Shown here one piece after another: positions 3,186-56,624 of a stretch of 64,000 bases of DNA (the stretch's first letter is position 1; each line of letters starts with the position of its first letter). This stretch comes from a virus. The DNA lies in the IMG/VR virus record IMGVR_UViG_3300045988_122291, positions 50,076 through 114,075 of that record; one strand, 5' to 3'. Position numbers and translations under genes: made by a program. The notes under the pieces are model-generated. The model had not been told where the DNA came from. It searched no databases and worked only from the letters and a program-made list of their open reading frames with translations.

Positions 3186-3542
3186 TTAGAGAGAATTATA
3201 GCCAGAATTTTGTTTAACCAAATCTTGAATACCTTCTGACAGCACTTCATACATCATTTCTGCGTCATCAGTTGTCCAATATTCATCACGAATCCTGTAT
3301 TTAACCACACAATCTACGCCATAATTTGTTAGAGCATCTTTGAATTGCTTCGCTAATTCTTTGCCATATACTGCTGGTTCGCCCATAATGGTTTTCACGC
3401 CATCCTTAGGCACAGAAACATAGTATGTTCCAGACAGTGAAGCGGTATAGTTACTGGGTTCTTGCTGTATATAAAGCCCCATTATATATGTTTTTACGAT
3501 AGTGGAAGTAAGTTCTAAATCTTTTTGTTGCTTTTCGTTCAT
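3186..3542 (-). CDS. hypothetical protein (118 aa)
   Basis: Intact ORF directly downstream of the helicase gene. Confidence 0.6.
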   Translation of the reverse strand: MNEKQQKDLELTSTIVKTYIMGLYIQQEPSNYTASLSGTYYVSVPKDGVKTIMGEPAVYGKELAKQFKDALTNYGVDCVVKYRIRDEYWTTDDAEMMYEVLSEGIQDLVKQNSGYNSL

Positions 3543-6859: not shown

Positions 6860-9800
6860 CTATTCCTCCTTCGGCTCATAACCGTATCTGTAACTTTGTA
6901 ACTCCATTGTACCATCATCTTCATTGATTGTCAAGATTTTTTGTAACTTGTGAGGGAAAATGCTGTTCTTGTAAGACTTGACACGGAACGTATCTTCACT
7001 GCGATAACCAGTAAGTACAAGACCCTGACCACGAGTAAACCAGCTTGTGTCCATGACAGTCTTTGTGCCGTCTGCGTGCTGTTCGCTAAATTGGGCTTTG
7101 TAAAATGGATAACTATGATTGTCGAAACGAGCCTGTACTACGTTGTTATTAGAATCAAGTACAGTAATAGTTGAATGAGCATCATTTCTTGCTATCACTG
7201 TACCCATAATTCGACTAAGCTGATACTGTCGCCATTCACGCTTGCCGTACTTCTTAGTAACAAACACTGGCTCAGTAGGCAACTTATCAAATGTAGTAAC
7301 ATTGTATCTATCAGCGTCAATGCAAGTCAATTCATGCTCATTAGAGTAATAGGACAGTGCTTCAAAACTCCAATGATTAACGTTCATGTTAGGCAACTTA
7401 TCACGCATACGAGCCTTGATAGATTGTTCGTTATACATCTTTAGGAACTCTGGCTGGTTAATATAAGCCTTTAGTTCTTCAGTGACGTTCTTGAATAGCT
7501 TCTCAAGCGACTTATCTACAACAAGGGTTCTGCCTTCCTCATCATACCACCAATCTACATTTTCTTCAAGTTGACTACGACACATTGAATCGAAGAAAAC
7601 TAATGCTCGTTCGTCAAGCCAATAGATTTTCTTTGATTTGAACTTGGGGTGTGTACCATAGAGGAATTGCTTTGAGCAAACGTATTTTTTGAAGGCAAGT
7701 GGCATGATAAGAGTGTTGGGTAGCTTACAGCCAATGCGTTGTAATTCAGCTAAATTAGCAGTGGTAAGCGTTTGTTTGCGAGGGGTAGAAAGGGCGAAGT
7801 ACGCTTGCATGACGCGCATACGGTCAGGACAGAACTCATCAAAACAACCAGCCTTGATTAGTTGGATAAACTTGGATGGCGTGATAAGCGTACCTTGGTA
7901 TGAGTTGCGTGTATAGAAGTCACGGAAAGAAGTGTAGGGGCGGTTTGCGATAATTTGTTGAGCAATTTCTGCGTTAATGGATGAAATACCGCCTAAACCG
8001 AAAAGAATAGTGTTATTTGCTTCATCAACGCCAAAAGACATTTCTGCATGATTAGCTGGTGGTGGAGCAACAGCAATACCATTTTCTTTAGCTTTATATA
8101 CAGAGCCAGCAATTTTACCATAGTCCGTAGTATTAGCCACATTATCACGTTCATCTTCTACGCCAGCTTGAGTAATTACAACAGCGGCGTTCCAATAAAT
8201 CTTAGGGAACTTATAGTAAAGATTTAGTTCTTGCAAACATTCGGTGCTGTACTCGTTTGAATGGCTAAAGTCGAAGGCGTAAGATTTGGACATTTCAATT
8301 TGCACTTTCCATAGATAGTCAAGAAAAGCCTTGGTTCTGCCACATTCTGCGCCCTTACGGTACAATCTTTCTTCGGTTTCAGCAAGTGCTTCAGCATTTT
8401 TCTTCGCAACTGCCTTACGCGCCTTATCCGATTCTTTTAGATTGAAGTTACATACACGCTCATCCATTAACACGCTCATCATGGTACTTTGAGCAATCAT
8501 AAGACCGCAGTAGTTGCCAAGTAGTTCTTTAAGGATTTCTTGTTCTTCTTGTGGAATACCATAATTGGTCATATCTTGATACCATTCATTGATATTCTTG
8601 CGATAGCGAACATACATATCCATAGGCTGTTCACCATCAGCAACAGCAAGACGCATTAGACCGTTGGCAAGCGTAAGTTCAGTAAGATTCTGAGCACCGA
8701 TTTTACGTAATGCTTCTTTGCCAGCCTTAGAGTCATACTGAAACGCAGAAGCCATAGTAGGCAACAAGTCCCACATTTCTTTTGTTGTCTTATCAAGTTT
8801 GTCATAAGACAAGTAATAATTGTAAGTATCTCTGAGCGAACCCTTATCTTCAATTTTACCGTTCTTTAACAGTAGTTCCATGCACGTTCTAATGGTTTGT
8901 AGACAGTCGATGGATAGCAGGTCGAACTTGAGGTCGCCCGCATATTCAGCGTCATGCAAGTTAAATTGACTGCATACTGCACCGTTAGAAGATACCATGT
9001 AGCTACCTGTTTCTGTGTAATCGCCTTGAAGCACGTTAAGTGCGCCAGCGTGAACGCCAGAAGAAACAATCATACCTTCAAACGCAAGCGCAGTTTCAAG
9101 CAAGTCGTCATACTTCTTTACTTCTGCGACAAATTCTGGCACGGGTGCTCTGCCCTTCTTTTCATTGCCATATAAGCAATCTTTAAGAGAATAAATAGAG
9201 CCACGGACAGTAGGAATCAAAGACTTAATATATCCTACAGTATCAGAAGAAATACCCAATCCAGTTGCGGCACGTTCAAGTGCTGTTTTTGCAGACAACC
9301 TACCCCAAGTTACGCATTGGCAAGTTCTGCGCCAACCAAAATAGTCTTTAATAGCTTGAATAATTCGCTCTTTCTTAAAACTTTGAATATCAATATCACA
9401 ATCGAAAATGCTTTCCGAACGAGCAATAGAACAGAAACGCCACCAAGGGTAAAATTCTTTCGTTTCTGGGAGCATAGGGTCAATACCAGTGATGTTCAAT
9501 AACTTATTAGTAAGATAGCAACCAGCCGAACCACGACCAATGCCAACATAACTATCGCCTTCAGTCCAAATAAGGTCTACTACCTTTTGCACAACAGTAA
9601 AATAATCTGCCATACATTCACCATCAAATGCTTCACCCAATCCTTTAACTTGCTCCATTTCAATGTTAATCTGAGCAAGATATTCTTTAATGTTCACTGG
9701 ATGAATATTATTGTATTCGTACAGTCCTTTTTCTACTTGATAATAGTAGTATCGTTCATTAAGCGTACCTTCAGTAGCATAATATTTCACAAAAGGAAAT

Positions 9801-16029: not shown

Positions 16030-16129
16030 CGTACCACCTCCTTAGAGATGACACGGTTTACGTTACTGTGAAATGCCCCCCCCAAGTGAGCGCATAGTTT
16101 GGTAATTCATAATATTTTCTCCTTTGTTT
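16030..16129 (-). promoter_or_regulatory. poly-G uORF leader L1
   Basis: SD GGAGAA + uORF 16110..16063 (MNYQTMRSLGGGISQ*). G8 tract = C-run 16076-16083. The current frame stops 33 nt before the P1 ATG; the G7/G10 frame is open to the TGA overlapping ATGA at 16029. Confidence 0.6.
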
Positions 16130-16411
16130 TTAATCTTTCTTAGGCGTAGTATAAGACTTAGCGTTTTCACTGTCGCCCATACCAAGAACACCATTTTGTG
16201 TAGTCGGGTCAACAAGTGCGTTCCATACGTTGACACAGACAAGGAAGAGACAGTAAGGATTACTGATAGTACCCTTCAGCACGTTGAGCACGCCTGCCCA
16301 TGTGGTCAAATCTGCCGCTGTTAGACCTGCGTAAGCAAGTGCAGTAGCGAATGCACCAAGAATTACATTTACCCAAAACGCATAGTTTTTAATTCTCACC
16401 TTTAGATTCAT
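16130..16411 (-). CDS. holin (phage_holin_1-like)
   Basis: 93 aa, hydrophobic helices, polar tail DPTTQNGVLGMGDSENA; 1-nt overlap with endolysin stop. Confidence 0.7.
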   Translation of the reverse strand: MNLKVRIKNYAFWVNVILGAFATALAYAGLTAADLTTWAGVLNVLKGTISNPYCLFLVCVNVWNALVDPTTQNGVLGMGDSENAKSYTTPKKD

Positions 16412-18135
16412 TACTCTTCACTCCCATACATACCCACTCTATCGTTAATAACAAGAACTCGTAGCAAATCTTCACTTAGGTCAAGACCCTTGCCATTACC
16501 CTTGAGATAGCCCTTATTCACGAGCTTAATGATAGTGTCCTTACCCCAGTCTGGAACTGAAGCAATGCTATCATATACCTTATTGTACTTAGCGTACACT
16601 TCTTCAGCTACATTGCCAGCAACCTTCTTAGCTTCGGTCTGAGCAATAGCTGTGGTTTCTGCTTTAGTCAAATCTTCCACTCCTTTAACCATGTTTAGGA
16701 AATTAGTCCACTGTTCATAATGTCGCACGAAGGGGTCTGGACAATTACCTACAATAAATGTTTTTGTACCTTGGCGCACAAGAATATATCCTGTTGGCAC
16801 ACTTACACAAGACACTTTAGTTGTACGAGTTTTTACACTCTTCTGAACACCACCAATACTATAATTAGCTGTTAAGCGATCAATAGCAAGATAATCATAA
16901 CGAGTGCTTCTACCTAATCGTGTTTTGTTAGTACGATACCCCTTAGTCGCGCAAACAGCTTGTACAACGTCTAAGTTATTTTGAATAGAAGAAGTATAAA
17001 GATGTCCTGCTTCGCAACCGTCTACTTGTAAACATTCGTTCCAAAATACGTCATATTGGTGTTGATTCATTTCCAATAAATTATATTGGAAATGCTTATC
17101 TTTAAGCCACTGTTCACACCAATAGTAAAGGTCTGTGCCATAATTACGGTAACTTACACTACCATCTTTCTTGTTAGAAACAGTATAGTCAATCATTAGG
17201 TTATCAAGAATCTCTTTAACTCTATCAATCTTGCGTTGTTTCTTAACATGAAACTCAATGCCACATACATCTTGGTAAGTTCCCTTCATATAATGTCCGT
17301 CACCTTGTACCCATACAAGGAATCGAATTTCATCATCAGTGAGAGGTAAACCAGACCCAATATACATAGCACCGTTTTTAACTAAGTTTTGTCGAGAGCC
17401 TGTAAGCATATCTCCCCATAGTTGCTCACGCCATTTATATGTTCCAGTCTTTTTATTAAAATTATTGTTTGCCGCCCACATACGATGATTAGAAGTTGCT
17501 TCAAGACCATGACAGCTTAGAACTTCAGCTTCATAAGGCTCAACCACGCTACTAACAGCGCCAAAAGATAGTCTATCAGTATTAGTGTCATACTGCATAA
17601 CTTCTTCTCCAACCTTAATATCTCCAAGAGCCTTCCAACCTTCGCGTGTTAGAAGTTCGGTTGAATCCAAAGGTAAACAATACTTATGTGTAACATGATA
17701 GTGCATACATACATGCTTAATATCAACCCCATACTGTTCCATAAGCCATTGCACGAGCTTTACAGTACGCTTCTGGGTTTCCATAGTAATTACATATTCG
17801 CCATTCTTCCAGTCGCTGCACATTTCAATACCAATGGAATTAACGTTGCGACAGCTATTGTAATAATAGCCTGTTTCACTACCACAATGCCATGCAGTAT
17901 TAGCAAGGTTTACAGTCTGCCAAATTTCGTTCTCATCAACAAAGAAATGTGCGCTTGCATTAAGCCCACTACAACGAGCAAAATAATCTGCATTGTTCTT
18001 TGCAGTATCGCCCTTGCCAGCAGTAAAGTGAATAACAATCCATTGAATCTTATGCTTTACGCCATTCTTTGTGCGACCATACATAAAATTGGAAGGATTG
18101 CATTCCTTAAATTGAAAATATGGTTTTTCTGCCAT
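16411..18135 (-). CDS. N-acetylmuramoyl-L-alanine amidase endolysin (Amidase_2/PGRP) containing an intein; SLH-like C-terminus
   Basis: IVIHFTAG, AHFFVD, WHCG, HVTHKY|...|CPDPF; C-terminal VPDWGKDTIIKLVNKGYLKGNGKGLDLSEDLLR. Confidence 0.85.
   Translation of the reverse strand: MAEKPYFQFKECNPSNFMYGRTKNGVKHKIQWIVIHFTAGKGDTAKNNADYFARCSGLNASAHFFVDENEIWQTVNLANTAWHCGSETGYYYNSCRNVNSIGIEMCSDWKNGEYVITMETQKRTVKLVQWLMEQYGVDIKHVCMHYHVTHKYCLPLDSTELLTREGWKALGDIKVGEEVMQYDTNTDRLSFGAVSSVVEPYEAEVLSCHGLEATSNHRMWAANNNFNKKTGTYKWREQLWGDMLTGSRQNLVKNGAMYIGSGLPLTDDEIRFLVWVQGDGHYMKGTYQDVCGIEFHVKKQRKIDRVKEILDNLMIDYTVSNKKDGSVSYRNYGTDLYYWCEQWLKDKHFQYNLLEMNQHQYDVFWNECLQVDGCEAGHLYTSSIQNNLDVVQAVCATKGYRTNKTRLGRSTRYDYLAIDRLTANYSIGGVQKSVKTRTTKVSCVSVPTGYILVRQGTKTFIVGNCPDPFVRHYEQWTNFLNMVKGVEDLTKAETTAIAQTEAKKVAGNVAEEVYAKYNKVYDSIASVPDWGKDTIIKLVNKGYLKGNGKGLDLSEDLLRVLVINDRVGMYGSEE
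16744..17679 (-). other. intein (312 aa) with LAGLIDADG homing-endonuclease domain
   Basis: Block A CLPLDSTELLTREGWKALGDIKVGEEV, block B LEATSNHRMW, LVWVQGDGHY, terminal FIVGN followed by the +1 Cys of CPDPF; occupies aa 153-464 of the lysin. Confidence 0.75.
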
Positions 18136-18161: not shown

Positions 18162-18184
18162 AAGGGGAGAATATATCTCCCCTT
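18162..18184 (-). terminator. intrinsic terminator-like hairpin
   Basis: AAGGGGAGA / TCTCCCCTT arms with 5-nt loop, followed on the minus strand by TTTT. Confidence 0.55.
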
Positions 18185-18427: not shown

Positions 18428-18823
18428 TTATTCAAAGTAGCCTATTTCAATTTTATCAAAATAGTCACTCAAATAACCACTTAAACTTCTAATGTGTATT
18501 TCATCTCGGTCGGAATTATACCAAACTGAAAATAATGAGTAATTTTGCCTCGGATAGTTTTTGGGTGATACATAGAAATTATTTTCTTTGTCATCGCTAC
18601 TAATATCTCCCATAAAATTAGTGGGGAAAATAATAACTTCTTTTCCATCTGAAGTTTCTCTGTAAAATCTAAAAAGAATATTGTTTTTCGGCGTGCGATA
18701 TAAATTTGTATTGTATAGCGTTAAATTGTAATCATTCGGCATATTCCATGATTGTGTTACATGAAACACCATAGTGTCTCCGACACTTTTAGTTTCCTGT
18801 TTATTAGTGACAATAGCATTCAT
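18428..18823 (-). CDS. MNGIVTGK-family paralogue P3 (131 aa)
   Basis: MNAIVTNKQETKSVGDTMVF ... KIEIGYFE; own SD GGCGGTGA, no uORF, 19 nt after the P2 stop. Confidence 0.7.
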   Translation of the reverse strand: MNAIVTNKQETKSVGDTMVFHVTQSWNMPNDYNLTLYNTNLYRTPKNNILFRFYRETSDGKEVIIFPTNFMGDISSDDKENNFYVSPKNYPRQNYSLFSVWYNSDRDEIHIRSLSGYLSDYFDKIEIGYFE

Positions 18824-18842
18824 ACTGTCACCGCCTTTGAAG

Positions 18843-19145: not shown

Positions 19146-19216
19146 TTACTCTGCCCCCCCCAGTTTAATCTGAAGAATGCTCATTGCTCAAATTCCTTTC
19201 TGAGCAATGAGAAGGT
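19146..19216 (-). promoter_or_regulatory. poly-G uORF leader L2
   Basis: uORF 19184..19146 (MSILQIKLGGAE*). G8 tract = C-run 19154-19161, length fixed by ORF-track coordinates. The TAA stop abuts the P2 ATG (TAAATG). The uORF start lies inside the 11-bp hairpin 19180-19211. Confidence 0.6.
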
Positions 19217-19591
19217 TTATTCAAAAGTGCCGATTTCTACTGAAGAAAGGTTATTTCTCATTTTAAAATTATCAGAAACTCCCAAAGCAAGTCTTATGCT
19301 GGGGTCTGAATATTTTTTTACAACCTCTACCCAATCTGCTTCGTTAGGCGAAAGATATGTCGCAATCGTCGAACTGTCGTTATCTACCATTACAAAGCGC
19401 ATTGAAATATAAGCTACTCTGTCACCAAAAGATTCTATTTTTAAGAAATAAGGTGGCTCAAGATAAGAAGTATTTGGCACATAAAAATACATGAGTGCAG
19501 TTGCTTCTGTAGGAACACTGCCTACTAAAGCAGTTTTCCATACCAAACTTCCAGCCTGTTTCTCTTGCTTACCAGTCACAATACCGTTCAC
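19217..19591 (-). CDS. MNGIVTGK-family paralogue P4 (124 aa, GTG start)
   Basis: (V)NGIVTGKQEKQAGSLVWK ... SSVEIGTFE. Confidence 0.7.
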   Translation of the reverse strand: MNGIVTGKQEKQAGSLVWKTALVGSVPTEATALMYFYVPNTSYLEPPYFLKIESFGDRVAYISMRFVMVDNDSSTIATYLSPNEADWVEVVKKYSDPSIRLALGVSDNFKMRNNLSSVEIGTFE

Positions 19592-19746
19592 TCTTGTGCA
19601 CCTTCTTTCGGTGCATACTTCTCATTGCTCAAATAATTTAGTGGGAGACTATGCCCCCCCCCAGTTGAAACTGAGGTTGACTTACAAATACACATTTTTG
19701 TGTCTCCTTTGTTATGTGTTGTTTGTAATTTGAGCAATGGGAAGGG
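19592..19746 (-). promoter_or_regulatory. poly-G uORF leader L3
   Basis: SD GGAGA + uORF 19695..19588 (35 aa). G9 tract 19654-19662, confirmed by the APPQ translation of the plus-strand ORF 19491..19733. Its TGA overlaps the P4 GTG (GTGA). SD hairpin 19597-19615. Confidence 0.65.
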
Positions 19747-20103
19747 TTAAGAAAATAATTCAAAACCTAAATTACTATATTCATTAGTAGTAATAGTATT
19801 GGTATTGAAATTTATGGTAAGCGTTGCAACTGAAGAGCTACCTATGCCATTAAGAGTGATAACCGATTGTTTATAAATAGCCCCTGTTTCATATCCAGAA
19901 CTGCTATTTATAACAATCGCATATTTCTCTTGAGGAAAAATCACACAATAGGTCGTATAATAACTACGATATGTTTCAGTAGCAATAACTGAATATTTAT
20001 CTATATCAGTAATCGTTGCATTACCATTGTAGTATTGCCGAACAGCAGAAGTTGGCACTTTACCACCAGTTGTTTCAATCTTACCCGTTACAATTCCGTT
20101 CAT
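19747..20103 (-). CDS. MNGIVTGK-family paralogue P5 (118 aa)
   Basis: MNGIVTGKIETTGGKVPTS ... NLGFELFS. Confidence 0.7.
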   Translation of the reverse strand: MNGIVTGKIETTGGKVPTSAVRQYYNGNATITDIDKYSVIATETYRSYYTTYCVIFPQEKYAIVINSSSGYETGAIYKQSVITLNGIGSSSVATLTINFNTNTITTNEYSNLGFELFS

Positions 20104-20262
20104 CCAACAGCACCAACTTTCTTCAGTGCTGTTCCATTGCTCAAATTAAAGTTTAGGAGAATGCTAACGCATTGCCCCCCCCCAACTGAAGTCAGGGTTG
20201 ACTGAATGTTAAACATAAATGTTCTCCTTTTGTATAGTTTTTATTTGAGCAATGGAAGGGAA
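20104..20262 (-). promoter_or_regulatory. poly-G uORF leader L4
   Basis: SD GGAGAA + uORF 20216..20100 (38 aa). G9 tract 20175-20183. Its TGA overlaps the P5 ATG (ATGA). Hairpin 20106-20133; 12-bp arms CCATTGCTCAAA 20134-20145 / 20244-20255. Confidence 0.6.
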
Positions 20263-20616
20263 TTACCAATAAATGAAAACTGCCATATTCGTTCCGACAT
20301 ATGTTAATGTCATTGCTGAGAAATCGACAGTATACAATGCTGAAGTTGAAGTAGCGGGAGAATAAAAAGTATAGACAGTATCGGTAATTATTTTTCTATC
20401 TTCCCAATCAACGGGTTGAGGGAGATATATGATATATTTTCCTTGTGGATATATCTCATAGCATCCGTGCGAACTTATATATGTTCTAATGCACCTTAAT
20501 TTAGATATATCGAAAGGAGAATTTGTTTTATCAATAACAGGTCTTTCTATGCTTGTAGGCACAGTATCACTTATACTTTGCTTTTCTTCAATTTTACCGC
20601 TAACAATCCCATTCAT
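20263..20616 (-). CDS. MNGIVTGK-family paralogue P6 (117 aa)
   Basis: MNGIVSGKIEEKQSISDTVPTS ...; C-terminus divergent. Confidence 0.7.
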   Translation of the reverse strand: MNGIVSGKIEEKQSISDTVPTSIERPVIDKTNSPFDISKLRCIRTYISSHGCYEIYPQGKYIIYLPQPVDWEDRKIITDTVYTFYSPATSTSALYTVDFSAMTLTYVGTNMAVFIYW

Positions 20617-20785
20617 ACAGTCACCTGCTTTCGGTGACTAACATTGCTCAAAAAGGACTTTCGCCCTATTAGGAAGTTATTGCCCCCCCCAAGTGAAACA
20701 TAAGTTCACTCAGAGAAAACTTGATACGCATGGTATCACTCCTTGTTATTTAATTGAGCAACGTGTGTGAAGGGTGGTTAAGTGG
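20617..20785 (-). promoter_or_regulatory. poly-G uORF leader L5
   Basis: SD GGAG + uORF 20731..20669 (MRIKFSLSELMFHLGGAITS*). G8 tract 20683-20690. The current frame stops 52 nt before the P6 ATG; the G9/G6 frame is open for 24 codons to the overlapping TGA. SD hairpin 20620-20638. Confidence 0.6.
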
Positions 20786-21127
20786 TTAGGAAATTTCGAG
20801 AATGCCAAGTTCTAATGAGTTCATACATTCGCTAAAAGGAATGAAACGTGAAGCAGAATTAGTTCGAACCATACAAGCGCCTTGCCACTGGCTACAATAA
20901 ATGTTGTCTGGTAAATCCAGTGTTATGTGCCTTTCATCATCTCGCGAAATCACGAAATTTTTCACGCAAATTAAAGTAATATTATTACTTTTATCTATAA
21001 TACGAATATACTTCAAAGCATTATAGTCAAAAGTAAAATTTGATTGACTTAAATCAATCGACTGTTCACTCTTAAACACCATACTACCAGCAGTCTTTTC
21101 AATCTTGCCAGTTACTATACCATTCAT
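20786..21127 (-). CDS. MNGIVTGK-family paralogue P7 (113 aa)
   Basis: MNGIVTGKIEKTAGSMVFKSEQ ... SLELGILEIS; ATG 21127 preferred over the GTG at 21130. Confidence 0.7.
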   Translation of the reverse strand: MNGIVTGKIEKTAGSMVFKSEQSIDLSQSNFTFDYNALKYIRIIDKSNNITLICVKNFVISRDDERHITLDLPDNIYCSQWQGACMVRTNSASRFIPFSECMNSLELGILEIS

Positions 21128-21250
21128 CACAAGACCTCCTTTCGGAGGTTGCCAATCCTGTTGCTCAAAGGAAAGGCATTTCCAATCATTAGGTTAGAAC
21201 AATGCCCCCCAAGTGAATGAGAGTTTTAGTCTTAATCATATGTATTCTCC
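21128..21250 (-). promoter_or_regulatory. poly-G uORF leader L6
   Basis: SD GGAGAA + uORF 21239..21189 (MIKTKTLIHLGGIVLT*). G6 tract 21205-21210. The G7 frame is open for 26 codons to the TGA that shares its A with ATG 21127. CCTCC-GAAA-GGAGG hairpin 21135-21148 buries the SD. Confidence 0.6.
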
Positions 21251-22795: not shown

Positions 22796-22824
22796 ATTAT
22801 ACCACATCCTTATACATTTGTCAA
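22796..22824 (-). promoter_or_regulatory. sigma-A-type promoter
   Basis: TTGACA (22824-22819) N17 TATAAT (22801-22796); 5'-UTR hairpin AGGCGA/TCGCCT at about 22768-22784. Confidence 0.55.
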
Positions 22825-32931: not shown

Positions 32932-33312
32932 TTATTCCAAAAATCCAAAAGTTAAAGATTTTAATAAACCAAAAGAAGAAGTTCCTGCTATATGTTGTTT
33001 CTCCCAATATATATCGTCATCATCACGTGTCCGGAAGCGGTAAAATTTAATACTTTCATAAATTGAATCATTTTCACCCAAAAGTTCAAAAGAACCACCT
33101 ACACTGAATGAATTTATAGACAGATAAGTATATGCTATTCCTGTTGGTTGTTGCATACCTATTCTTAGCGTATATTTATAAAATCTTCCAACCAAATCAT
33201 AATATCTTAATTCATACGGAGAGTTGTCATTCGCAACATCCCATACAGCAACTTCGTTAAATACCAAACTTCCGGCTGGCTTTTCCATTTTACCAGAGAT
33301 AATTGCGTTCAT
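32932..33312 (-). CDS. MNGIVTGK-family paralogue P8 (126 aa)
   Basis: MNAIISGKMEKPAGSLVFNE ... SLTFGFLE. Confidence 0.7.
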   Translation of the reverse strand: MNAIISGKMEKPAGSLVFNEVAVWDVANDNSPYELRYYDLVGRFYKYTLRIGMQQPTGIAYTYLSINSFSVGGSFELLGENDSIYESIKFYRFRTRDDDDIYWEKQHIAGTSSFGLLKSLTFGFLE

Positions 33313-33429
33313 GCAATCACCTCCTTACTGCTTACAGCGTTAAGCCGTATGCCCCCCCCAAGTGGAAACAAAGTTTACTAATTTAAACATAAAAATGCCC
33401 TCCTTTAATTTATGTTATGAGGAAAATCC
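33313..33429 (-). promoter_or_regulatory. poly-G uORF leader L7
   Basis: SD GGAGGG + uORF 33390..33340 (MFKLVNFVSTWGGHTA*). G8 tract 33352-33359. The current frame stops 27 nt before the P8 ATG; the G7/G10 frame is open to the TGA overlapping ATGA. Confidence 0.6.
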
Positions 33430-49837: not shown

Positions 49838-50374
49838 TTACTTTAACAGCTTTGCAAACTTTGCAAACTGTTCATGATTAACGTTAGGTAAAATTGCAAT
49901 AGAAACATCTAAATTCATGTAAACGCCCATGATAAAATTAGTGTTACGCAAAAACGCCTTGCCAAACGTGCACCATCGAATAGGCTTTACATATTTTTCA
50001 TCATACACAAACAATTTTTCACCATCAGAAAAAGCGCAAAGCGTGCGCCATGTATTTTCTGCGCTAATTCCTGTGTACAGCAGTGAACCATCTTCTAACG
50101 TTGTCGGCATAAATTCCACTATTGTCTGTTCACTCTTAACGCAATAATCACCCAAACATTCAACGGAAAAATTACCGCCAGCGGTAAAATTGAATGTTTC
50201 TTGCAGAAAATCAATCATATTTTCGCGGACAGCGGCAAAACTTGCGATAAATTCACCATTAGAAAAATAAATAGTCGCATCCTTACGCTGAATATATACT
50301 TTTCTGCGCTTTGTTTCCTTCTTCGCTAACTTAATATAATATTCAAGAACCTTTTCAGCACTCATCTTTTTCAT
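49838..50374 (-). CDS. hypothetical protein (178 aa)
   Basis: Intact ORF; followed by the AGCTGG/CCAGCT terminator hairpin near 49806-49832. Confidence 0.55.
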   Translation of the reverse strand: MKKMSAEKVLEYYIKLAKKETKRRKVYIQRKDATIYFSNGEFIASFAAVRENMIDFLQETFNFTAGGNFSVECLGDYCVKSEQTIVEFMPTTLEDGSLLYTGISAENTWRTLCAFSDGEKLFVYDEKYVKPIRWCTFGKAFLRNTNFIMGVYMNLDVSIAILPNVNHEQFAKFAKLLK

Positions 50375-56520: not shown

Positions 56521-56624
56521 CAGCAATCACCACCTTTCGGCAGTCGATTACTTAACCAATGCCCCCCCCAAGTGGCGAGGTGGTTTGATAATGCTAAATG
56601 TTCTCATAGGGAACACTCCTTTTC
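56521..56624 (-). promoter_or_regulatory. poly-G uORF leader L8
   Basis: SD GGAG + uORF 56607..56548 (MRTFSIIKPPRHLGGALVK*). G8 tract 56562-56569. The G7/G10 frame is open to the TGA that shares its A with ATG 56520. CTGCC-GAAA-GGTGG hairpin 56530-56543 covers the SD. Confidence 0.6.

Follow-up and report, generated by a model that had tools for sequence, protein, structure and literature searches.

How ribosomes reach a start codon whose Shine-Dalgarno (SD) sequence is buried in a hairpin is the question raised by a family of nine paralogous genes, P1 to P9, in a 64,000-nucleotide (nt) stretch of viral DNA (IMG/VR record IMGVR_UViG_3300045988_122291, positions 50,076 to 114,075). This whole stretch is called the window here, and positions are counted from its first letter. 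The coding strand of all relevant genes is the minus strand, on which the hairpins are read. An earlier reading of the letters without database searches (the sequence-only reading) had proposed that short GAAA-loop hairpins mask the SD of five paralogues and are melted by a ribosome arriving from a short upstream open reading frame (uORF). In this study, we analyzed these hairpins, the reading frames preceding them, and their counterparts in related loci. The hairpins were found to be a nearly universal and covarying feature of the family. They are likely opened only by a ribosome which translates the uORF in one particular register, terminates at the overlapping start codon of the paralogue and reinitiates there, with the register being set by heritable slippage in a G tract.

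Hairpins at the start codons of the paralogues

The five hairpins of the sequence-only reading (P4, P5, P6, P7, and P9) are all present on the minus strand exactly where it had placed them. As it had also claimed, the 3′ arm of each is an SD-like element of the paralogue, ending 1–7 nt before the start codon; in P7, the SD lies 7 nt before the AUG. The same reading had found no convincing hairpin in the P1 leader and had regarded the feature as not universal. Both statements had to be revised: P1 has an 11-bp hairpin over its SD, and discrete hairpins of this kind, referred to as locks in the following, were found in eight of the nine paralogues in the window (Table 1). The P8 lock has the opposite polarity, with the SD being paired to codons 3–6 and the AUG located in the loop (12 bp, −17.9 kcal/mol; conserved in MNAIIS-type relatives), and in P2 the SD region is likewise paired with early codons. 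In P3, the G tract is located 8 nt from the AUG, which leaves no room for a hairpin, and only a weak pairing with the poly-G was predicted.

Individually, the hairpins gave dinucleotide-shuffle z-scores of −5.7 (P9), −2.3 (P6), −2.1 (P7), −1.8 (P5), −1.4 (P1), and −0.4 (P4). Because these values are mixed, the argument cannot rest on any one fold. The opening energy was calculated for the set, defined as the cost of making positions −16 to +3 single-stranded within a context of −60 to +30. It was 8.9–20.1 kcal/mol for the nine paralogues, whereas 62 further genes of the window that carry an SD had a median of 4.7 kcal/mol, with the 90th percentile at 8.8 kcal/mol (Mann-Whitney p = 1.4e-5). The sequence-only reading had made its case dependent on thermodynamically favored folds; this is borne out for the set, while the single hairpins are uneven, with P4 at the lower end. 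The minimum free energy of positions −45 to +6 had a median of −13.2 in 58 unique paralogue start regions and of −4.4 in 64 controls (p = 6e-16, with related samples). The motif CYGAAAGNNGG occurs four times in the 64-kb window, every time at a paralogue start, with 0.5 occurrences being expected. A covariance model of the tetraloop class matched paralogue leaders only, significantly for P9, P7, and P1; the P4 and P6 hairpins, which have 7-nt loops, were missed by it. Searching the Rfam 15 covariance models gave no leader match at E ≤ 1. Taken as a set, the hairpins decisively exceed chance.

For comparison with relatives, 118 paralogue leaders were collected from about 30 related loci together with the window itself, giving 58 unique start regions in 22 classes. 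These loci were found via a poly-G DNA motif, protein matches, and the neighboring CmpB-like gene, while a search of viral contigs for related loci with a paralogue profile found none. The close relatives are human-gut metagenome contigs of 50–114 kb and contigs binned with Clostridia-type metagenome-assembled genomes (MAGs). A start-proximal hairpin is present in 20 of the 22 classes, which is close to universal, with at least 15 different stem sequences, among them CCUCC/GGAGG, GCACUCC/GGGGUGU, ACUGCC/GGUGGU, GUCACC/GGUGAC, UGCACC/GGUGCA, and CCUCA/UGAGG as well as AACAGCAC/GUGCUGUU, GUUGACAC/GUGUCAAC, and GCUGGCAC/GUGUCGGC. Insertions into the loop extend the helix, as in ACCUCCU-A-UAC-GCAA-GUA-AGGAGGU, where the GNRA loop GCAA is recreated, and in another helix of 12 bp with a GAUAA loop.

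In a MAFFT alignment of all classes, the loops were ungapped and the 3′ arms fell out of register; therefore, a tetraloop subset and an alignment-free arm-swap test were used. Over the 20 hairpin classes, native arm pairs had a mean of −10.2 kcal/mol compared to −3.5 kcal/mol for chimeric pairs, the native 5′ arm ranked first among 20 partners in 16 classes, and the native mean was reached by 0 of 20000 permutations. In an ungapped alignment of 11 tetraloop hairpins, which was not fitted to the structure, 97% of the cells were paired versus 70.5% after shuffling (0/500) and 42–64% in slid controls; both sides had changed in five of the six pairs. The earlier claim that the stems differ in sequence and stay complementary thus holds, and the covariation, a sign of a structure maintained by selection, is real.

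Within classes, 0.066 change events per column were counted in stems and 0.034 in loops compared to 0.165 in the flanks, i.e., about 2.5 to 5 times fewer. Single cases include a P6-type relative with a GGUGGC 3′ arm (U-A to U-G), a P9 relative (L001) in which a U-G pair became C-G, and relatives of P5 with an invariant 8-bp core and a variable loop. The codon phase of the hairpin within the long uORF frame differs between leaders; hence, its conservation is at the RNA level, and conservation of an encoded peptide is ruled out. Distant homologues of the CmpB-like gene (L042–L050, on contigs of Clostridia, Oscillospiraceae, and Pseudoflavonifractor MAGs; 33–40% identity) have no G tracts of at least 7 near this gene, and no deeper covariation was therefore obtained from them. 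The poly-G/uORF system seems to be confined to one clade of human-gut phages.

The loops across the classes are GAAA, GAAAGCA, GAAAGAA, GCAA, GAUAA, UAAG, CAAG, and AGCAA. The description as GAAA-loop hairpins therefore applies to P7 and P9, which like some relatives (GAAA, GCAA) have a GNRA tetraloop, but not to P4 and P6 with their 7-nt loops, nor are GNRA tetraloops present in P5 and P1 (UAAG). The GAAA(G) loop should be read for the most part as the 5′ half of an extended SD, GAAAGGAGGUGAU, and not as a required tetraloop. Based on established knowledge, we take GAAAGGAGGUGAU to be fully complementary to the 3′-terminal tail of the 16S rRNA of Firmicutes. The extended SD reads GAAAGGAGGU in P7 and GAAAGGUGGUGAU in P9, and the 5′ arm (CACC or CCUCC) can be read as an anti-SD mimic. 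When open, the paralogue SDs pair with the anti-SD at −11 to −20 kcal/mol.

Reading frames and G tracts of the leaders

Each paralogue except P2 is preceded by a leader with a strong SD and AUG and a short uORF containing a tract of six to nine G (G6–G9). The tract is located in this separate uORF, 39–89 nt upstream of the paralogue start (8 nt in P3), and neither in the regulated ORF nor in a promoter spacer. In all 35 poly-G leader variants, representing 92 leaders, one single register is open through the hairpin, and in all of them the first base of its stop codon is at +1 (AUGA or GUGA) or −2 (UGAUG) relative to the paralogue start, in agreement with the earlier claim that the long uORF frame crosses the hairpin and terminates on the start codon. 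The two remaining registers stop at −22 to −81. Shuffled leaders gave the full frame pattern in 9–15% per leader. In contrast to the closed start sites of the paralogues, those of the uORFs are open (1–8 kcal/mol) with the exception of P3, whose uORF start is locked and located behind the P4 stop codon.

Table 1. Coordinates of the paralogue starts, locks, uORFs, and associated elements in the window. ON and OFF denote uORFs in the long register and in a short register, respectively.
Feature	Position	Strand	Details
Paralogues P1–P9	window	(-)	nine genes, about 100–131 amino acids, N-terminus MN(G/A/V)I(V/I)
P1 start	16029	(-)	AUG
P2 start	18823	(-)	
P3 start	19145	(-)	AUG
P4 start	19591	(-)	GUG
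P5 start	20103	(-)	AUG
P6 start	20616	(-)	AUG
P7 start	21127	(-)	AUG
P8 start	33312	(-)	AUG
P9 start	56520	(-)	AUG
P1 lock	16030-16055	(-)	CGUGUCAUCUC-UAAG-GAGGUGGUACG, 11 bp, ends at start codon; covariance model E=5e-3
P2 hairpin	18806-18832	(-)	SD region GGUGACAGUA with codons 3-6 UAUUGUCACU
P4 lock	19597-19615	(-)	UGCACC-GAAAGAA-GGUGCA
P5 lock	20106-20133	(-)	AACAGCAC-(12 nt)-GUGCUGUU
P6 lock	20619-20639	(-)	AGUCACC-GAAAGCA-GGUGACU, 7-8 bp; core GUCACC-GAAAGCA-GGUGAC 20620-20638
P7 lock	21134-21149	(-)	ACCUCC-GAAA-GGAGGU, 6 bp; core CCUCC-GAAA-GGAGG 21135-21148; covariance model E=7e-4
P8 lock	33295-33324	(-)	SD GGAGGUGAUUGC with codons 3-6 GCAAUUAUCUCU
P9 lock	56522-56552	(-)	13 bp with bulge; inner ACUGCC-GAAA-GGUGGU (CUGCC-GAAA-GGUGG at 56530-56543); covariance model E=2e-4
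P1 uORF	16063-16110	(-)	G8 tract 16076-16083; OFF, G7 or G10 would give AUGA
P3 short uORF	19146-19184	(-)	from AUG of UUGAGCAAUG; G8 tract 19154-19161; UAA abuts P3 AUG
P4 uORF	19588-19695	(-)	35 codons; G9 tract 19654-19662; long frame, ends in UGA of GUGA (ON)
P5 uORF	20100-20216	(-)	38 codons; G9 tract 20175-20183; long frame, ends in UGA of AUGA (ON)
P6 uORF	20669-20731	(-)	G8 tract 20683-20690; OFF, G9 would give AUGA at P6 start
P7 uORF	21189-21239	(-)	SD AAGGAGA; G6 tract 21205-21210; short frame at present, G7 would give UGAUG at P7 start
P8 uORF	33340-33390	(-)	G8 tract 33352-33359; OFF, G7 would give AUGA
P9 uORF	56548-56607	(-)	G8 tract 56562-56569; OFF, G7 would give UGAUG
P4 leader long-range helix	19623-19739	(-)	CAUUGCUCAAA (19730-19739) with UUUGAGCAAUG (19623-19632)
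P5 leader long-range helix	20135-20254	(-)	20135-20144 with 20245-20254
P6 leader long-range helix	20642-20763	(-)	20642-20651 with 20754-20763
Inverted-repeat hairpin	19180-19211	(-)	CAUUGCUCAGA-AAGGAA-UUUGAGCAAUG, directly after P4 stop
CU-rich boxes	19640-19650, 20150-20165, 20665-20675	(-)	
Endolysin gene	16411-18135	(-)	574 amino acids; Amidase_2 domain at residues 28-153

The leaders were also folded with the footprint of a terminating ribosome. In the leaders P4–P7 of the tandem array, the stops of the short frames are found at −49 to −69. A footprint on either of these stops left the opening energy of P4–P6 unchanged (9.8, 13.8, and 16.7 kcal/mol) and increased that of P7 from 10.4 to 11.2–12.2 kcal/mol, while with a footprint on the long-frame stop the lock of P4–P7 was gone. 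The earlier statement that ribosomes in the short frames leave the hairpin closed is thereby supported for P4–P7; it does not hold cleanly for P1, P8, and P9, the last of which is among the five hairpins it had listed, as discussed below.

In the tandem array, a long-range helix is added to the module of uORF, G tract, and lock. Its arms are about 100 nt apart and enclose the uORF start and the G tract, and the whole leaders reached z-scores of −5.2 to −5.7. In relatives, its two arms covary (UGUUGCUCAAA with UUUGAGCAACA; CA..UG to UG..CA), which points to a helix in the RNA and not to a site for a protein. This helix may shield the SD lock from ribosomes which leave the leader at the short-frame stops.

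Directly past the G tracts of the array, a CU-rich box followed by a short-frame stop was observed (GUCUCCC, UUCUCCUAA, ACUUCCUAA). Each box is complementary to the uORF SD of its own leader (GGAGAC, AGGAGAA, AAGGAGU), and the predicted folds pair the box or the G tract with neighboring C/U runs. This could represent feedback on uORF initiation or be an artefact of G-rich folding.

Tract lengths in the 92 leaders were 5 (n = 2), 6 (n = 8), 7 (n = 4), 8 (n = 66), 9 (n = 11), and 10 (n = 1). Tracts of G5–G10 occur among near-identical leaders, and the P4-type leaders alone show 5, 6, 7, 8, 9, and 10. Altogether, 17 leaders are ON and 75 are OFF. The ON alleles are G6 or G9 in the P4, P5, and P6 types and G7 in the P7 type; the P1, P8, and P9 types would need G7, and no ON allele of these classes was present among the 92 leaders. 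Of the uORFs in the window, those of P4 and P5 are set to the long register, and the G8 uORF of P3 ends directly at the P3 start. Along 13,574 nt, only a single substitution and a single indel separate two related contigs of different samples (L009 and L010), with the indel falling within a G tract. In another locus (L034, about 340–441), a P8-like leader has a decayed tract, CACUGGGGGAGCC, and has kept the lock CCUCA-GAAA-UGAGG; apparently, a point mutation within the G run has frozen this switch.

P2 starts 19 nt past the stop codon of P3, and both genes are chained behind P4. Family members lacking a uORF are located behind a real gene that terminates in the 5′ arm, e.g., GGC-UAA/UGA-CCCU-CAAG-GGGGUGGC, and represent ordinary coupling with the same lock. 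The mini-uORF of P3 begins within the tight hairpin at the P4 stop, which has an SD-like sequence in its loop and the AUG in its 3′ arm. In relatives, the last gene of the array starts at the AUG of UUGAGCAAUG in such a tight hairpin directly past the preceding stop (L009, about 8110–8152; L011, about 2290–2331; L016, about 3190–3232), while in the window about 36 nt with the G8 tract separate this AUG from the P3 start. This arrangement looks like the recent creation of a new switch.

Proposed opening of the hairpins and alternative explanations

In the proposed mechanism, an anti-SD-like arm, located either upstream (CACC or CCUCC) or downstream in codons 3–6, would pair with the SD (GGUG or GGAGG). 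The lock would repress initiation in vivo, since a closed SD would be used poorly by free 30S subunits, and translation would need a ribosome delivered from an upstream reading frame. For eight of the nine genes in the window, this would be the uORF of 12–38 codons with its strong, accessible SD and internal G6–G9 tract. In one of the three registers, the ribosome would pass the hairpin and arrive at a stop codon which overlaps the start (AUGA, GUGA, UGAUG). There, having unwound the lock, it would reinitiate, with the freed SD keeping the 30S subunit in place, while ribosomes in the remaining two registers would terminate early. Because only one register reaches the start, gain or loss of one base in the G tract would switch the paralogue on or off; the tract changes would arise by replication slippage and act as heritable switches. 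In members without a uORF (P2 and several in relatives), the ribosome would come from the preceding gene, the stop of which lies in or just before the 5′ arm. The role of the hairpin is independent of how the register changes.

Several observations weigh against this mechanism. In P1, P8, and P9, the short-frame stops (−22 to −36) fall within or adjacent to the 5′ arm of the lock; the short-frame UAA of P9 (56548–56550) is inside it. Because these stops touch the 5′ arm, a terminating short-frame ribosome would partly open the lock, so that the OFF state of these three genes may be leaky and reinitiation after short-range scanning may occur. As single-sequence thermodynamics, the folds of P4 (z = −0.4), P1, and P5 are unremarkable. 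Within classes, the substitutions are equivocal: 11 were kept or compensated and 13 broke a pair. Among the latter, seven are due to one class merged across sequences of unequal length, and most of the others are located at helix ends or in loop-proximal extensions. In two classes, the sequence matching an SD best (AAGGAA or AGGGAA) is not in the stem but in a loop of 8 nt. The commonest tract, G8, is OFF in every class and would also fit a fixed-rate recoding site. Furthermore, the differences in tract length may partly be homopolymer sequencing or assembly errors, because the lengths were taken from assembly consensus sequences; L010 had about 5x coverage.

The prevalence of G8 (66 of 92 leaders), which is one step from ON in every class, would be expected if a fixed G8 tract before the same lock allowed the ribosome (−1/+1 on GGG codons) or RNA polymerase to slip at a set low rate, giving a small constant output of each paralogue. 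A homopolymeric G run is generally known to permit tRNA re-pairing in both directions. However, the P4, P5, and P6 types need +1 nt for ON and the P7, P1, P8, and P9 types need −1 nt; because the classes require opposite shifts, a single directional recoding signal does not fit. Moreover, no stimulatory structure is located 5–9 nt past the tract, with the hairpins being about 20–60 nt away, and genomic tracts of 5, 6, 7, 9, and 10 do exist, including the in-register ON alleles G6, G7, and G9. Slippage at a fixed rate, the main alternative, is thus unlikely. For P1, P8, and P9, it is plausible, though less likely than not, that translation of the uORF in any register opens the hairpin, since no stop is more than about 36 nt away from the start, and that the tract tunes the level of coupling in a graded manner and is not an on/off switch. 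The position of their short-frame stops, from which the modelled footprint reaches −24 to −10, is in favor of this; the modelled opening energy nevertheless stays at 8.7–16.6 kcal/mol with the ribosome at these stops due to alternative pairings, and the strict overlap of stop and start in one frame argues that the register is special.

That the hairpins act independently of the uORFs, as a site for a repressor or a C/U-rich small RNA or as an RNA thermometer with incidental uORF geometry, is very unlikely. The loop GAAAG does show the lowest substitution rate of all parts, and a small RNA targeting a G-repeat leader is known for Helicobacter pylori tlpB/RepG (PMC8295292), but the extended SD accounts for the conservation of the loop, and the loops are heterogeneous (GAAA, GCAA, GAUAA, UAAG, CAAG, AGCAA). 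Since the stems are wholly different between classes, there is no common sequence for protein recognition; in addition, the frame geometry is kept in every one of the 35 variants, and no Rfam family matched. It is hardly credible that the hairpins have no role in translation and are inherited duplicates, mRNA stabilizers, processing sites, or terminators. Although the leaders are related by duplication and one terminator-like match overlaps the P4 hairpin, this match is on the plus strand and the coding strand has no U-run; the stems have diverged and remained complementary, the 3′ arm always coincides with the SD at 0–7 nt from the start, and P8 and P2 achieve the same masking via a different partner arm.

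Further candidates were rejected. A frameshift-fusion gene was ruled out, as the long frame always stops at the paralogue start. For a programmed ribosomal frameshift site, the hairpins would have to be about 5–9 nt from the tract instead of about 20–60 nt, and the long frame yields no fusion product. Intrinsic terminators were dismissed, with no minus-strand terminator match at any SD hairpin and no coding-strand U-run. Inverted repeats as boundaries of invertible DNA segments were rejected in view of the single orientation shared by all 118 leaders.

Genome setting and relation to known systems

The tandem array runs from P7 to P2 and is preceded by tail-fibre-like genes and a gene for a small membrane protein. 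It forms one operon with a consensus promoter at 22824–22796 and a terminator at 18184–18162. At the leaders, a single weak promoter-like match was detected (10/12; 21264–21235, directly upstream of the P7 uORF). Because this is the only one at any leader, control at the level of translation is plausible. With the 7.4-kb region as the query, blastn found nothing in 50,697 GenBank phages; therefore, no annotated relative exists among them. No family was matched by the paralogue proteins in Pfam and PHROGs searches. An AlphaFold2 model of a paralogue is a beta-sandwich (predicted local distance difference test score 74) without a significant match in PDB and BFVD. The product is probably a small virion-associated protein, and our guess is that the paralogues are exchangeable tail-fibre-associated modules. 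The host can be inferred only loosely as a Clostridia-type gut bacterium.

Two observations concern other genes. The endolysin of the window is about 310 amino acids longer than the syntenic endolysins of relatives (261–264 amino acids), and the additional part resembles an intein or homing-endonuclease insertion (C...HN-C context), although Pfam matched nothing there. In L012 (15138–16235) and L013 (15110–16207), genes for an IS605 OrfB/TnpB-like protein and a tyrosine recombinase are located around the P8-like paralogue, away from the array.

Hairpins masking a ribosome binding site (RBS) and translational coupling via overlapping stop and start codons are textbook elements. Coupling by unmasking of a sequestered RBS is known, e.g., from the MS2 coat gene to the replicase and lysis genes and from Escherichia coli rpmI to rplT. 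As in these cases, the downstream start of the paralogues is in a local helix which would be melted by the upstream ribosome, and stop and start overlap or abut. In contrast to them, the upstream frame is a dedicated, non-conserved mini-ORF and not a gene, whether the lock is reached is determined by how long an internal G tract is, and the module is present eight times in one genome. In leader-peptide control of the erm and cat resistance genes, as proposed for the paralogues, opening of the hairpin over the downstream SD depends on where a ribosome stands in a short leader ORF. There, however, the trigger is drug-induced stalling, which is reversible and physiological, whereas here it would be the genetic register of the leader ORF.

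Poly-G contingency tracts are described for receptor-binding genes of Campylobacter Fletchervirus phages (Sorensen et al. 2021, as cited in PMC12823448 and PMC12633550), and contingency loci were reported for T2 and T4 (preprint PMC12633550). These tracts likewise have about 7–11 G, set the frame by their length, are polymorphic between close relatives, and occur several times per genome. They are located in the regulated ORF and truncate the protein, whereas the tracts described here are in a uORF, would act through the SD-masking hairpin and termination-reinitiation, and leave the protein ORF untouched. The G repeat in the leader of H. pylori tlpB, regulated by the small RNA RepG (PMC8295292), is similar in that a variable homopolymeric repeat in an mRNA leader sets expression post-transcriptionally; it is a small RNA target in an untranslated leader, unlike the repeat inside a translated uORF with conserved frame logic. 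In a full-text literature search, no repeat-tract switch acting via uORF termination-reinitiation and an SD lock was found to be described for phages or bacteria. The hairpin alone is ordinary; what is out of the ordinary is that, throughout a family of paralogues, it is systematically combined with a mutable uORF.

On balance, we lean towards the view that a uORF with an open start, a hypermutable tract of G, and an SD lock together form a modular translational contingency switch in front of eight divergent beta-sandwich paralogues next to tail-fibre genes, serving the stochastic expression of a subset of them in a phage of Clostridia-type gut bacteria with the coding sequence remaining undamaged. 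The design is simple enough to be reused as a synthetic stochastic switch. If this view is correct, phase variation can operate without involving a promoter or the regulated ORF: a disposable uORF tract and an SD hairpin would constitute a portable on/off module which leaves the protein intact when OFF. Uncultured human-gut phages would then possess a second, mechanistically distinct class of phage contingency loci, and this would explain how nine alternative versions of a small protein can be encoded in one genome, with few of them being expressed at once.

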